NCBI GenBank assembly: GCA_051251855.1
Contig: JBPOGI010000004.1
Span: 352,001 to 416,000 of the forward strand
Length of the DNA stretch: 64,000 nt
Direction: 5' to 3'
Source: Roseibacillus sp.
GTDB taxonomy: Bacteria; Verrucomicrobiota; Verrucomicrobiia; Verrucomicrobiales; Akkermansiaceae
Position 1 is the first letter of the stretch, and each line of letters opens with the position of its first letter. Shown here piece after piece: positions 34,434-39,942 of this stretch. Under the pieces are notes generated by a model. The model was not told the DNA's origin. It saw nothing but the letters and a program-made list of their open reading frames with translations, and did no database searches. Both the position numbers and the translations under genes were made by a program.

Positions 34434-34641
<208 letters not shown>

Positions 34642-34644
<3 letters not shown>

Positions 34645-34667: not shown

Positions 34668-34688
34668 CGTATTTCTAGCGATCTCCTC

Positions 34689-34791
34689 GGAGAGGTGGCC
34701 TTTACTGCCGCCCACCCAACCTCGTCGATCCAACCCCGTCATTTTCCAACTACGGTCACATCACCCTAGCGGCAATCAAAGCCGCCGCTCC
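34689..34791. repeat. MITE/REP-like element copy 1
   Basis: Ends GGAGAGGTGGCCTTTACTGCCGC ... GCGGCAATCAAAGCCGCCGCTCC; homologous to copies at 38250, 39696, 47374, 49687. Confidence 0.75.
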
Positions 34792-34940
34792 AAAACAAAG
34801 CGGCCGCCGAATCCTTTCGAATCCGGCGGCTGTCAAAACATTCCGATTCCGCACTCGCGGACGAAAGAAACTGACGTGCTATTACCCTTGTTATGAAGAC
34901 GAACCACGGCGTTCAACTCGCGGTTCACAGGTTCAGACTC
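34792..34940 (-). ncRNA. Candidate structured sRNA, copy A
   Basis: Paralogous to 39416-39565; three minus-strand hairpins with compensatory changes; terminal GAAA-loop stem plus T-rich tail. Confidence 0.6.
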
Positions 34941-35228
34941 TTCACATCACAAACTGTTCAACTTTTATGAAGTATTTTTTCACGATCCCCAAAAATGAGT
35001 TTGTGATGGTGACAAAATGGTCCAAGTCACTCAATTATGGCTACAGCTCGCCCACCTCAAATTGAGGAAAGCCTGCATTCTCTTATCCGATGATGAGAGT
35101 AAAAACCGTAACCGCCGCCCAAAACCTCGGTAATCCTGATACCTGCTCATTCTCGAATGCCTTTGAAGAGCTCATAAGCTTCACACCTTCCCTGATGTGC
35201 TAGACCGATCTCCTACAAGCCCTCAATC

Positions 35229-36509
35229 TCACGACTTAGCCGCTGCCTCAATCTTCTCCTCGCGCTCATGCTGTTTTCCGAGATAAATGGCGAGGATCCC
35301 CCAAACCACCGCAATGCCAGCTCCTACTAACAGCTTGGCGGACAGATCTAACTTTAGAACACCCTCTGTGCCGAGAAAGACGAAAAACCAGACCCAAAAC
35401 ACGTCTCCCCCTCGATAGATAGTGACGTCAATGAAGGGCTTCGTTTTAAAGCGGGCCTCTTGGTCGACTCCCGTAAAGAGAATCTCCCGCGAAGGCCGTG
35501 TAATCGCGTAGTTTCCGGACTTTCGAAGGGTCTCCAAAATCAAGAAAACAGCGACGGTAGGAATAGTAGAAAAGAGAATGAGCGCACACGCCATAATGAA
35601 AGGGACCATCGCCAAAGCGGTTGCCAGCCCGAACTTGGCAGCAATTCGGTTCGTGGCAAAGAGACCAAGAAAGAAGGTCAACACGTTGACGATGATGTTC
35701 AGAGTCCCGAGAATCTTCTCTCGTTCTGGTCTCTCGTAGACAGAGAGAATATCTTTCTGCGCCAGGTAAAAGAAGGTGCCAATCCCTACGAAAATAAAGA
35801 TAAAACCCGCGATTCCAATCAGACGTTTGTGAAGCAAAAATTCGTTGAATCCTGAGAAAGGATTTCCACTCAGCTTCGTGAACTCTGCAGCCTTGGCACC
35901 AGGCTTGGTATTTTTATCTCTATCAAGAATCCCAATCAAAGGAATCACCACCAATAGAACCGCACTCGTAATGAGCAACTTCACTTCCAGTGGATACGCA
36001 TTGAGATATTTGGTCACCGCAAGAGAGCCTAAAATGGCGCCCGCACTCGCTCCCAAATTGATGAACGCAAAAATTCTTTTGGACTCTGACTTGGAATAGA
36101 GCTGGGACATGAAGCTCCAAAACACCGAAATGTGGAAGAGAGAGAAAACGCTAATCCAAACATAGAAAAACTTCCCTAAAAGCACCCGATCATAGCCGGA
36201 ATACAAGCCCAAGGCAGTCGCAATAAAGGTGAATGCGAAGAAGAGGAAAACCCCAGGAATCAGCCTCTTGAGAGACAAGCGAGCCGCAAAGACATTGTAG
36301 ATGAAGACCGCAACGATTGAAGAAAGAAAGGTGTAGGTCCAAAGCCTGGCCAACTCCGTATCGGTGAATTCACTCGATAACGAGTCCCTCACCGGTTTCG
36401 CGATCATGTAGGATGCCATCAGTAGGAAAATGAAGGCAAAGGAGATGATGGCTCCTTTGAACTCGCTAGGCTCAATCTTGGTAAGCCGTGTGAAAAAGTT
36501 TGGGTGCAT
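35229..36509 (-). CDS. MFS-fold transporter, NTP/NDP exchange (TLC)-like family
   Basis: About 12 TM; AKPVRD, ISVFWSFM, YAITRPSREILFT, KTKPFIDVTIYRGGD motifs. Confidence 0.85.
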   Translation of the reverse strand: MHPNFFTRLTKIEPSEFKGAIISFAFIFLLMASYMIAKPVRDSLSSEFTDTELARLWTYTFLSSIVAVFIYNVFAARLSLKRLIPGVFLFFAFTFIATALGLYSGYDRVLLGKFFYVWISVFSLFHISVFWSFMSQLYSKSESKRIFAFINLGASAGAILGSLAVTKYLNAYPLEVKLLITSAVLLVVIPLIGILDRDKNTKPGAKAAEFTKLSGNPFSGFNEFLLHKRLIGIAGFIFIFVGIGTFFYLAQKDILSVYERPEREKILGTLNIIVNVLTFFLGLFATNRIAAKFGLATALAMVPFIMACALILFSTIPTVAVFLILETLRKSGNYAITRPSREILFTGVDQEARFKTKPFIDVTIYRGGDVFWVWFFVFLGTEGVLKLDLSAKLLVGAGIAVVWGILAIYLGKQHEREEKIEAAAKS

Positions 36510-36547
36510 TATTGGATGTTTCTTAAGGGCTAAGCTATGGGCAGAAT

Positions 36548-37327
36548 TTACCAAGGAAGCTTCGAGCCATCATAGTACCAAAGCTGGCCTGACTGCTTGG
36601 GAGTCAGCTCTTCAATGACCTTTTTCAACTTCGGCATCGAATCCTCAGGCTTCAAGTTGCCCCGGTTCGTTCCCATGTCTGTCTGATTGTGCCCCGGCGC
36701 AACCACCGCCACGATGAATCCCTTTTTGTGGAGCTCAAAGTGCAGCGTGCGGGTGAACATATTCAGCCCCGCTTTCGAAACCCGGTAGCCATAAGCACTG
36801 CCCCCCTTTCTGCTGAGGATGCTCGAGCGAGTCGACATATTGATGATCTTCTTCCCCTGAGAAGCGTGCAGGTTCGGCATCAGCGCTTGCGTGACAAAAA
36901 TAGGCCCCATGGTGTTGACCGCGTAGCAGAGCTCCATCTCCTTACGAGTCAGGCTATCGATTCCATTCATCTTCGTCCCAATAGGATTGGGCCCAAAGTA
37001 ACCCGCGTTGTTGATCAGGATATCGAGAGGCTTCCCCTCCAAGGTCTTCGCCATCGCCGCAATGCTCTCTTCCGAGGTCACATCCAACGCCACCACAGTC
37101 GCGCCCGCCTCCTTCAGCTCAACCGCCTCCTCAGGCTTACGAGCAGTTCCGTAGACCAAGTAACCATCGCCCAAGAACTGCTTCGCCAACTCCAAACCCA
37201 AGCCTCTGTTTGCTCCGGTGATTAAAACAGATTTTGGATTCTCGTCAGTTTCCGCTGAATCTTGGCCATGTGCGAGAAAAGGCAGCGAGAGGAAAGCAAG
37301 AAGGCCGCAGAGGTAGGTTTTCATCAT
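36548..37327 (-). CDS. SDR family oxidoreductase (CsgA-like) with N-terminal signal-like sequence
   Basis: TGANRGLG, LINNAG, YRVSK, PG.NQTDMG. Confidence 0.92.
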   Translation of the reverse strand: MMKTYLCGLLAFLSLPFLAHGQDSAETDENPKSVLITGANRGLGLELAKQFLGDGYLVYGTARKPEEAVELKEAGATVVALDVTSEESIAAMAKTLEGKPLDILINNAGYFGPNPIGTKMNGIDSLTRKEMELCYAVNTMGPIFVTQALMPNLHASQGKKIINMSTRSSILSRKGGSAYGYRVSKAGLNMFTRTLHFELHKKGFIVAVVAPGHNQTDMGTNRGNLKPEDSMPKLKKVIEELTPKQSGQLWYYDGSKLPW

Positions 37328-37507
37328 TTTTAAGGTTCTGATTCACTCTACGTGACTGGGATGCGAAAACCTACCCACATTTTCCTGTGAAAAACCCACA
37401 TCCCGCTCCAGACCTGCTTCGCTGTCGAATTGAGAGGAAGGAATGAAGCCGCCCCGCTTGCACAATTCGACATTGGACTCCCTCTCTCCCTGCGCCAGAC
37501 TTCCGAC

Positions 37508-38245
37508 ATGCTTACCCCCTTTCGCACAGTCTTACTTCTCAGCTTACTCATCCTCCAAGCTTGCTCGCAAAGTAACACCACAACCTCAGCCGCCGCCAAA
37601 CTCCTCGGAGCCAACTGGACTACCATCGAGTCCTCCATCGCAGCCCAACGTCAAGCAGGCCACCCCAACTACGACCCCACTTGGCTCTACGTCGTCGATC
37701 CCCGCGCCCAACGCATGCACATCATCAACCGCAAAACCGGCCAGGTGAAAGAAACCTTCCGCTGCGGCACCGGCAAGCGTGGCCTCGGCATCGAAGACGC
37801 TCAAACCCCTCCTGGCTTCTTCACCATGGGCGGAGTCCGCATCGCCAAAAACGGCAACACCGCCATCCAAACCGGCGACTCCAAAAAAGGCGTCAGCGGC
37901 ATCTACGCCGAAATGCTCTATCCCCCTACTCACCCCGATCCAGAACTTCGAGGCATGGTTCCCAACGGAGTCGTCATTCACTCCTACAACCCCGCCGCCA
38001 GCGAAATGCTTCGCCAACGCCGCGCCCAACGCCTCATCGGCCGCGTCCCCTGCACCACCGGCTGCCCCGTCCCCGACCTCGAAGACGCCCCCAAACTCAT
38101 CCCCTACCTCAAGCAATCCGCCGGAAAATTCGATCCCAACGCCAATCCCAACGCCAATCTCCAAGCCCTCATTAACAGCGGCCAAGTGAAGCAATACCAA
38201 CGCAACCAACTCGGAGCCGCCATCTACATCCTCAACCGCCAATAG
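37508..38245 (+). CDS. L,D-transpeptidase (YkuD)-like lipoprotein
   Basis: Lipobox LQAC; VVD...Q.M, CGTG...TPPG.F, VIH...TTGC catalytic-type spacing. Confidence 0.7.
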   Translation: MLTPFRTVLLLSLLILQACSQSNTTTSAAAKLLGANWTTIESSIAAQRQAGHPNYDPTWLYVVDPRAQRMHIINRKTGQVKETFRCGTGKRGLGIEDAQTPPGFFTMGGVRIAKNGNTAIQTGDSKKGVSGIYAEMLYPPTHPDPELRGMVPNGVVIHSYNPAASEMLRQRRAQRLIGRVPCTTGCPVPDLEDAPKLIPYLKQSAGKFDPNANPNANLQALINSGQVKQYQRNQLGAAIYILNRQ

Positions 38246-38249
38246 TAAC

Positions 38250-38351
38250 GGAGCGGCGACCTTTACTGTCGCCTGCCCAACCTCGTCCCAAACCACCCCG
38301 TCCTATCCAACCACTGGCCAAAAATCCGACCGCAATAAAGTCCGCCGCTCC
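38250..38351. repeat. MITE/REP-like element copy 2
   Basis: GGAGCGGCGACCTTTACTGTCG ... CGACCGCAATAAAGTCCGCCGCTCC imperfect terminal inverted repeats. Confidence 0.78.
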
Positions 38352-38470
38352 CTCACTCAAAAACTCAAATCCACCCCAGTCCGTCCTCCGTGTTCACTCC
38401 CCGACCTCTGCGACTCTGCGTTGAAACTTCCAACCCCGTCCACCCCACCCAACCCTTCAAACCCAGCCCC

Positions 38471-39391
38471 ATGAAATATCTCTTCTCACTTCTCCTCATC
38501 CTCCCAACCTCTCTTCTAGCCCAGGGTTGGGAGAAACTGGAGCGCTGCAAACTCGAAACAGATCGCTACGTGAACGGCGATAGTTTTTTCGTAAGCCACA
38601 AAGGCGACACCCACAACTTTCGTCTCTATCTCTGCGAAGTTCCCGATAAAACCAATAAATACCCAGACCGGATCGAAATGCAGGAAAACATCTTTGGAGC
38701 CGAGGAAAAACACCTTCTCGAAATTGGCGAAGAAGCCGCCGAGTTCACCGAGAAGACTTTGCGCCGATCCTTTACCGTCTACACCCAATGGGAAGATGCT
38801 GGCGGAGCCAATGACCGCTACTATGCCTATCTCATCTCGCGCGACGGCAAAGACCTCACCAAAGAACTCACCAGCAATGGCTTTTCGACCGCTTATCAGG
38901 AGCAGAGCGAATACTTTGATGGCACCAGCGCCGGTAAACTCTTCCGAGAAATCAAACGCCTCCAGCAAGAAGCCCGAAAAAAGAAAGTCGGCATTTGGGA
39001 ATTCTCCACCCTTCCCCAAGAAGCCCCCCTTCCTCCCGCCCCCTCTGACCCCGTCGTGTTAGAAGGGTCCATTCCAGCCACCGAAATCGAAGCTATCAAG
39101 GAGATGCTGGGCCAAACCGCACTTATTTCCGGAGAAGTTTCGGGCGTAGGCCAGACCCCATCAGGATCGATTACCTTCATCAATTTCGAAGGCAGTGAGT
39201 TCACCGCCGTAGTATTCGCAGATGACCGCGAAGCGATAGAAACGGAACTAGGAACTACCATCAAGGAGGCTCTTAAAGGAAGAGCCATCACTCTTCAGGG
39301 TGAAATTTCCACTCACCGAGACATCCCCCAAATCAAGATCACCGACAAGGCTCAGATTAATCCAGAGGCCAAAGTTGTAGAGTCAGAGTAA
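38471..39391 (+). CDS. Secreted thermonuclease (SNase)-like protein with C-terminal OB-fold
   Basis: Signal peptide; NGDSF, FRLY...PD, RYYAY, L...G, QEARKKKVGIW; OB-like G.V..V...FINF...FTAVVF. Confidence 0.8.
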   Translation: MKYLFSLLLILPTSLLAQGWEKLERCKLETDRYVNGDSFFVSHKGDTHNFRLYLCEVPDKTNKYPDRIEMQENIFGAEEKHLLEIGEEAAEFTEKTLRRSFTVYTQWEDAGGANDRYYAYLISRDGKDLTKELTSNGFSTAYQEQSEYFDGTSAGKLFREIKRLQQEARKKKVGIWEFSTLPQEAPLPPAPSDPVVLEGSIPATEIEAIKEMLGQTALISGEVSGVGQTPSGSITFINFEGSEFTAVVFADDREAIETELGTTIKEALKGRAITLQGEISTHRDIPQIKITDKAQINPEAKVVESE

Positions 39392-39415
39392 CTTCATTCT
39401 TAGACTCCTCCCCCT

Positions 39416-39565
39416 AAAACAAAGCAGCCGCCGGACTCTTGCGAATCCGGCGGCTTGTCAAAACATTCGATTCCGCACTCGCGGCCGAAAGAAACTGACT
39501 TGCTACTTACCCTTGTTATGAAGACGAACAGCGGCGTTCAACTCGCTGCTCAAAGGTTAAGACTC
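39416..39565 (-). ncRNA. Candidate structured sRNA, copy B
   Basis: Paralogous to 34792-34940; terminal GCAA-loop stem plus T-rich tail on minus strand. Confidence 0.6.
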
Positions 39566-39638
39566 CCAAGTAGCCAACTCGTTCAAACAATTGGAAACTT
39601 TTTCATTTTTCCAACCCGAAGAGCCAAATGGCCCCCAT

Positions 39639-39798
39639 GGAGGGGCGACCTTTATTGTCGCCCACGCAACCTCGTCCTCTCCAACGATATCCCTCGGAGC
39701 GGCGACCTTTACTGTCGCCCATCCCACCCCGTCGAATACAACCTCGTCATTCTACAGCCACCATCACACGACCCCGCTTCAATCAAAGCCGCCGCTCC
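39639..39798. repeat. MITE/REP-like element copy 3, with two left ends (39639, 39696)
   Basis: GGAGGGGCGACCTTTATTGTCGCCC, GGAGCGGCGACCTTTACTGTCGCCC and right end CAATCAAAGCCGCCGCTCC. Confidence 0.75.
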
Positions 39799-39942
39799 GT
39801 CACTCAAACTCAAAAACCATCGGTCCGTCCTCTGTGTTCACTCCGCGACTCTGCGTTGAAAAAAGTCCAACCCAGTCCAGCCATCCCACCTAAAAAGACA
39901 TCACCTCGGCGACAATCAAGTCCGTCTCTTCAACGCGATTCT

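Follow-up and report, generated by a model that had tools for sequence, protein, structure and literature searches.

An apparently undescribed multi-copy small RNA gene family with sigmaE-type promoters in Akkermansiaceae

What kind of element occurs twice, on the same strand of intergenic DNA, within a 64,000-nucleotide stretch of a Roseibacillus sp. genome? This stretch (the window; G000:C8:352001-416000, where G000 is this genome) had been read from its letters alone, and the original prediction proposed a pair of structured, independently transcribed small RNAs (sRNAs). By comparing the two copies with their relatives, we find that they belong to an apparently undescribed multi-copy small RNA gene family. 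The best explanation, which we consider probable, is that its members are sibling sRNAs, induced by sigmaE and acting by base pairing independently of Hfq, that may damp their own stress pathway. They would be trans-acting RNAs of ~110-160 nucleotides (nt) and form the non-coding arm of an RpoE-like envelope-stress response in Akkermansiaceae.

Both copies were recovered as described: A (34792-34940) and B (39416-39565) both lie on the minus strand, align colinearly with 89% identity over ~149 nt (E 6.4e-49) and are the only BLAST-level matches in G000. These intervals contain the RNA, but the first ~10 nt of each are promoter DNA. They begin inside a -10 box, at 34935-34938 in A and 39560-39563 in B, as recognized because TTGAAC-N17-GTCT stands upstream in all ten of the first copies aligned. 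This promoter resembles those read by sigmaE and other sigma factors of the extracytoplasmic function (ECF) type. The predicted RNA is ~135-140 nt long in both copies, which are laid out as follows.

34956..34961, minus strand: -35 box of copy A, TTGAAC, sigmaE/ECF type, kept in 10/10 aligned copies
34933..34938, minus strand: -10 box of copy A, GTCnnA, 17 nt past GAAC, from the aligned copies
34792..34928, minus strand: copy A sRNA, ~137 nt, with a 5' end predicted by the geometry of the promoter
34901..34926, minus strand: P1 hairpin of copy A, from folding and covariation
34876..34900, minus strand: single-stranded linker of copy A, a putative seed, with core AAGGGU at 34884-34889, from conservation
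34832..34875, minus strand: P2 stem of copy A with apical hairpin CCGC-GAGU-GCGG, from folding and covariation
34792..34830, minus strand: intrinsic terminator and U tail of copy A, from a terminator scan
39581..39586, minus strand: -35 box of copy B, TTGAAC, from the aligned copies
39558..39563, minus strand: -10 box of copy B, GTCnnA, from the aligned copies
39416..39553, minus strand: copy B sRNA, ~138 nt, 5' end inferred, from folding and covariance model R2
39526..39551, minus strand: P1 of copy B, from folding and comparison
39500..39525, minus strand: linker of copy B, core at 39509-39514, from folding and comparison
39457..39499, minus strand: P2 of copy B, from folding and comparison
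39416..39455, minus strand: intrinsic terminator and U tail of copy B, from a terminator scan

Among terminator-like sites in the region the terminal stems of A and B rank highest, and model R2, of which copy A is a part, matches it at 34794-34931 (E 1e-16). Folding of the whole element gave z-scores of -3.0 (A) and -4.1 (B). The thermodynamic support comes mostly from the terminator, because these values fall to -0.07 and -1.56 once it is removed. The case for P1 and P2 is, on the alignments, one of covariation rather than folding energy. At the genus level (14 sequences), 12 of 29 pairs carry two-sided changes: two in P1, four in P2 and six in the terminator. In that alignment 97% of cells pair and none of 500 shuffles did as well, a control that is inflated by relatedness. 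Across genera, 30 sequences aligned by sequence only have two-sided changes at 16 of 22 pairs, nine of them in the terminator, and CCGY/GCGG versus CCAU/GUGG covary in the apical stem of P2.

These data bear out the stems that had been drawn for the two copies. Between A and B, P1 shows a single change on both sides of a pair (C-G to A-U) and two changes that G-U pairing tolerates, while P2 is predicted by folding in both and covaries among homologs. The loops fared less well: neither the P1 loop common to A and B nor the GNRA loop of the terminal stem is kept in homologs, although the P1 stem stands, as does an intrinsic terminator with a U tail in both copies. Similarly, the supposedly near-invariant linker shrinks to a family-wide core, AAGGGU(G/A)AACA; the remainder of that stretch is not family-wide. 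With a conserved promoter and a terminator of its own, and with stems covarying in 14 and 30 homologs, each copy has the makings of the independent, self-terminating RNA gene that was proposed. Its absence from Rfam also held, with no match at the gathering threshold or in E-value mode. Only a transfer RNA (tRNA) matched Rfam 15 in the window, nothing fell on the element at E up to 10, and eight homolog loci gave just two weak matches, far below threshold.

How widespread is the element? The promoter, three further paralogs and the breadth of the family had all been missed. A profile search of G000 found a third, diverged copy, C, at C1:1011383-1011536; paralog D lies upstream of a surA-like gene and paralog E beside an ECF sigma gene. 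Model R2 matches exactly these five loci, A to E, in G000. DNA searches of eight other genomes of the genus found A/B-type copies in three and C-type copies in six. The covariance-model search of relatives that had been suggested did return homologs in genomes of the family: model R1, which includes no promoter, matched 17 of 149, and the broader R2 matched 91 of the same 149 at E<=0.05 and 63 at E<=1e-5, which we call strong. A strict promoter-plus-core pattern occurs in 54 of 201 family genomes, up to six times per genome, with three control matches in total. In a named collection this pattern gave at least 123 loci. Among the matches listed, 76 of 80 titles are Verrucomicrobia, mostly Akkermansiaceae, Luteolibacter and Haloferula, and the loci under the four other titles lack a terminator. 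Outside the family, the strict pattern was found in 0 of 114 genomes from other families of the order; R2 matched weakly in 9 of 92, and the 10 such loci examined had neither seed nor promoter. Two patterns gave no match in viral contigs.

Members share a variable P1, a core UUCA..AAGGGU(G/A)AACA, a variable P2 and a terminator, with a median length of 134 nt. The conservation profile of the promoter-plus-core sequences is biased, as the pattern itself selected the core; unbiased support for core conservation is available because all 13 remote R1 matches contain it. A and B form a subfamily that was recently duplicated in this genus and has the variant seed AAGGGUAA, and their family membership is firm because promoter, architecture and core are common to the family. 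As in sibling base-pairing sRNAs, there are several paralogs, each with its own promoter and terminator, and a common seed. Among the genus-level groups of compared genomes (g1, g3, g5, g8, g11, g12 and g15), the pattern search in g3 matched 10 of 61 genomes versus 7 control matches. In one g3 genome, G132, two loci combine an intact promoter with a leading P2-like hairpin, part of the core and a terminator, and may represent a permuted remote homolog.

Could the element instead be a cis-acting leader or attenuator, or a selfish repeat akin to repetitive extragenic palindromic (REP) sequences or miniature inverted-repeat transposable elements? One subfamily does lie upstream of a surA-like gene, A/B-type copies sit at differing loci and also in tandem, and REP-like repeats flank both copies. 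However, copy A stands between a major facilitator superfamily gene on one side and a convergent tRNA on the other, and copy B is convergent with a nuclease-domain gene. In 25 of 70 assignable loci the next gene downstream is encoded on the other strand, which further argues against a cis leader. A terminator ends 148 of 163 promoter-plus-core sequences, and G000 holds only five copies, a promoter on each, in a family whose stems covary while its loops drift. We consider the cis or repeat reading very improbable. Many copies also read CAUGUAAGGG, which would suit a mini-mRNA whose functional part is an AUG-UAA start-stop in the linker or a small open reading frame. Yet AUG-UAA is missing from all five G000 paralogs and from several g8 copies, and the five have no open reading frame in common, leaving this reading with hardly any probability.

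Transcription is the step of the proposed mechanism that comparison supports well: each copy would be transcribed from its own TGAAC-N17-GTCnnA promoter and stop at its intrinsic terminator. This promoter precedes all 13 remote weak matches of R1, a model built without it. In G000, TTGAAC-N17-GTCT occurs at 10 intergenic sites, compared to 0-3 at ten other spacings. These 10 include A, B and C, and two others led us to D and E; further sites stand in front of OmpA-domain, NlpC-like and kinase genes, and upstream of an ankyrin-repeat gene there is a GTCA variant. Of 152 sequences, 105 have GTCnnA as their -10 box. In the available text of PMC9546586, the Fusobacterium sigmaE motif is given as GTCWAA / AAC and likened by its authors to that of E. 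coli; by resemblance to this motif, the family promoter is of the sigmaE/ECF type. A sigma-70 promoter scan of the region did not call it.

Which sigma factor would read these promoters? Very likely it is the product of an RpoE-like gene (G000:C1:1686792-1687394), the first in an operon whose further genes encode a membrane anti-sigma-like protein and a trypsin-PDZ protein. The genome thus has the RpoE-like sigma, with anti-sigma-like and protease genes, that marks hosts of sigmaE-dependent sRNAs. The sigma has Sigma70_r2/r4_2 domains and its best NCBIfam match, RpoE TIGR02939, falls below the cut-off; the anti-sigma-like product is a 141-aa membrane protein without a Pfam match. Of the 63 genomes with a strong RNA match, 57 have this sigma, versus 40 of the 86 without such a match, a count that supersedes our co-occurrence count by the strict pattern (51/54 versus 78/147). 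The RNA promoter is intact in 10 of 13 sampled RNA-bearing genomes with this sigma and in 0 of 6 without it. The absence was rechecked in five of those six, whose assemblies are incomplete, and the six represent about three independent losses because four of them are one genus. RNA copies in sigma-less genomes keep the seed while their promoter is decayed or replaced, a natural regulatory rewiring.

Orthologs of rpoE carry GAAC-N17-GTC upstream of themselves in 19 of 21 cases in g11, 4 of 6 in g15 and 2 of 2 in g12. Some genera seem to have a self-promoted rpoE and others one with a housekeeping-type promoter, and the latter genera are among the richest in RNA copies. A second ECF gene, the one beside paralog E (G000:C1:1224830-1225490), was considered as the cognate sigma. 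That candidacy is weakened, as the gene is kept where the RNA lost its promoter and the adjacency is confined to g1. The mRNA of this gene is probably almost leaderless, because its own family-wide promoter ends ~9 nt before the start codon.

What would such RNAs act on? We think it likely that the G-rich linker between P1 and P2 serves as a seed and pairs, without Hfq, to C-rich UUCACCC(U) sites no more than ~40 nt upstream of start codons in mRNAs that lack a Shine-Dalgarno signal. Hfq was found in 0 of 5 genomes in which controls were detected, so that the host protein of Hfq-dependent sRNAs is missing there. Leaders in G000 are C/A-rich with no Shine-Dalgarno enrichment, in agreement with the scarcity of these signals in Verrucomicrobia described in the accessible part of PMC10783764. 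Among 2,808 G000 leaders, GTTCACCC, the exact complement of GGGUGAAC in the core, ranks within the top 30 of 44,190 8-mers (10 seen versus 2.2 expected); antisense, it occurs 3 times versus 1.5 expected. Of the two roles first suggested for the conserved linker, seed or protein-binding site, we favor the seed because mRNA leaders hold complementary sites.

The protein-binding role would make the RNA a sponge or decoy, whose GGGU/GAGU words bind, for example, an RNA recognition motif (RRM) protein or whose UGAAC words sequester sigmaE-RNA polymerase. The linker, the P2 loop and the terminator loop indeed offer two or three unpaired occurrences of GGGU or GAGU, all five genomes examined encode 2-5 RRM proteins, and a 16-nt core is near-invariant over many paralogs, as expected of a protein site. 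A CsrB/RsmZ-type sponge would call for CsrA and repeated GGA loops, but CsrA was found in 0 of 5 genomes (controls detected) and the loop words are GGGU/GAGU. Paralogs D and E lack the loop words, leaders carry the complement of the core and not the core itself, and linker variants peculiar to a genus have counterparts in leader sites of that genus. A sponge is therefore quite unlikely in our judgment.

If the linker is a seed, targets shared across genera would include the mRNA of a membrane-anchored HtrA-type protease and that of rpoE, a step to which we give even chances. Genus-specific targets would be a sugar epimerase, a WcaJ-like transferase and a PhoH-like gene. Going by site position alone, ribosome loading at these mRNAs would be blocked and the stress response damped. 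Candidates were chosen from G000 rankings and then followed into other genomes; left out were an rpoE locus that has no start, two epimerase loci lacking a 5' end and a WcaJ-like locus with no placed start. The HtrA/DegP-type gene has a leader site in the first 6 of 6 genomes. Among 40 new orthologs, pairing reached the top 5% in 10 of the 22 from RNA-bearing genomes, covering 7 of 9 genera, and in 1 of the other 18, and the site exceeds composition shuffles in 10 of 22 versus 0 of 18. It is absent in both tested genomes whose RNA lost its promoter. By sequence the protein is nearer DegQ/DegP; judging from its N-terminal membrane segment, our guess is that it might activate sigmaE as DegS does. 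The rpoE leader ranks 4th of 3,061 in G000. It carries an 8-bp GUUCACCC site in 12 of 21 g8 genomes, and in a first set the site was found in 12 of 23 RNA-bearing genomes versus 2 of 16 others.

In the sugar epimerase, a site lies across the start codon in 4 of 5 g1 genomes and in 0 of 9 outside g1; in one genome, 18 unbroken bp join it to the linker of paralog E across the AUG. We had considered CUUCAU as an anti-start-codon and rejected it, as it mostly pairs within P1; it is relevant only to the epimerase site. The PhoH-like site accompanies the sigma in g1 (6 of 6 genomes, against 0 of 2 that lack the sigma), and the WcaJ-like transferase site is present in 4 of 5 g1 genomes with a placed start. 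Most of the target evidence comes from D, E and the consensus type, not from A and B, which with their variant seed probably have a shifted target set.

Alternatively, the same sigmaE-driven pairing sRNA might act mainly on exported or outer-membrane proteins of high abundance, and the sites at htrA and rpoE would be side effects of C-rich leaders. As far as their published descriptions were available to us, sigmaE-dependent sRNAs such as MicA, RybB and FoxI repress envelope proteins. AACC/ACCC words, the complements of GGUU/GGGU in the RNA, are enriched in signal-peptide leaders of G000, and D and E have 9-10 bp sites at several genes for secreted proteins. Nevertheless, signal-peptide genes are not enriched in the top 60 predictions (16, 18, 22, 13 and 13 for A-E versus 16.6 expected), and the htrA site survives composition shuffling and tracks RNA presence. 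The sites with the best conservation fall on htrA-type, rpoE and sugar genes. We regard this alternative as unlikely.

Several observations weigh against the explanation we favor, in which sigmaE-induced siblings damp their own pathway. Upstream of rpoE, no self-promoter is seen in g1 (0/7), in g5 (0/10) or in most of g8 (2/21). The RNA persists where the sigma was lost and therefore cannot exist only to control rpoE. In 6 of 8 g1 loci the second ECF gene is the neighbor of paralog E, and that gene's own promoter is similar, TGAAT-N17-GTC (ATGAATT-N16-GTC), in 29 of 30 loci. A held-out test of the rpoE site was not significant (11/24 versus 7/15, p 0.14); its RNA-negative labels came from the undercounting strict pattern, and four negatives later showed model matches. 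The PhoH-like site is absent in the three g8/g11 orthologs examined and the WcaJ-like site in two from g8. Predicted net energies for A and B are weak: -4.7 and -6.1 kcal/mol for rpoE, -7.2 and -5.9 for the PhoH-like gene, and +2.5 and -3.1 for HtrA. Paralog C has no convincing predicted pairing energy, and an unconstrained duplex ranking of G000 gave no clear target. In single-sequence folds the seed is no more than partly unpaired (mean 0.34-0.71). Finally, leaders are C-rich in general, gene starts come from a simple caller, rpoE and the other candidates were picked after viewing the G000 ranking, and kin are not independent.

A more specific form of the mechanism, direct self-limitation, is a possibility that we hold tentatively. 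Here, up to six Hfq-independent siblings would pair with the rpoE and membrane-anchored HtrA leaders that lack a Shine-Dalgarno signal. This arrangement would be new to the phylum, with HtrA possibly an activator of the pathway, and would replace the indirect, porin-based feedback of enterobacteria; just as tentatively, paralogs with drifted seeds would gain genus-specific cell-surface targets, by means of perfect pairing, up to 18 bp long, across the start codon.

The family is functionally like sigmaE-dependent sRNAs and sibling families such as FopS, judged by its predicted features, while being a member of no Rfam family. As described in the portions of PMC9546586 and PMC11005410 at hand, FoxI/FoxJ of Fusobacterium nucleatum share a sigmaE-type promoter (GTCnnA -10, AAC -35), an Hfq-less host, more than one sRNA per sigma and seed pairing near the start codon. 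They differ in a C-rich seed and in their main target, the porin FomA, and have no Rfam-level or visible sequence relation. The Akkermansiaceae RNAs, in contrast, have a G-rich seed, leaders without Shine-Dalgarno signals, up to 5-6 homologous siblings and, as predicted targets, HtrA-type protease, rpoE and cell-surface sugar genes. The enterobacterial MicA, RybB and MicL are likewise a sigmaE repressor arm with a short contiguous seed and an intrinsic terminator, but in the accessible accounts they are Hfq-dependent, mutually non-homologous and directed at porins or Lpp, with indirect sigmaE feedback (PMC5736990, PMC1851643). FopS of Bacteroides thetaiotaomicron, as far as PMC11697453 was available, has multi-copy paralogs with a common seed, pairing near start codons and an RRM-bearing host; it differs in housekeeping-sigma promoters, a length of ~65-70 nt and polysaccharide-utilisation targets, and we found no sequence link. 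StsR of Rhodobacter sphaeroides pairs with rpoE mRNA in a negative loop, although the part of PMC8307010 consulted describes it as RpoHI/II-driven, one step below RpoE, single-copy and Hfq-bound, whereas the Akkermansiaceae loop would be direct and multi-copy. OmrA/B also feed back negatively on their own regulator (PMC5736990, in part).

In the literature within our scope, which left out subscription papers and supplements, we found no paper on this RNA family and no regulatory sRNA family described for these Verrucomicrobia; the candidate lists of PMC5737381 and PMC8040213 could hold it. If the proposal is true, it extends the non-coding arm of sigmaE to another phylum, shows sRNA action without Hfq on mRNAs without Shine-Dalgarno signals and offers a case of direct sRNA feedback on sigmaE. 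The siblings come with natural experiments: sigma loss, promoter decay and seed drift. The family is directly testable because promoter, sigma, seed and ranked targets are predicted in culturable genera (Luteolibacter, Haloferula).

Around the two copies, REP-like palindromic repeats with many genomic copies lie at 34685-34791, 38249-38451 and 39640-39890. The tRNA gene beside copy A is at 34434-34507 on the plus strand, and its last 29 nt are exactly repeated at 34616-34644, 124 nt downstream, which suggests an attachment-site-like scar or a tRNA-linked repeat. Elsewhere in G000, three tandem sRNA-like units with a TGTGAC-type promoter stand behind another ECF operon (C11:235090-235500); lacking the family core, with another promoter and no match to the family profile, they are unrelated. 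An intergenic 12-mer is present three times at C12:28091-28430, with spacings of 190 and 147 nt.

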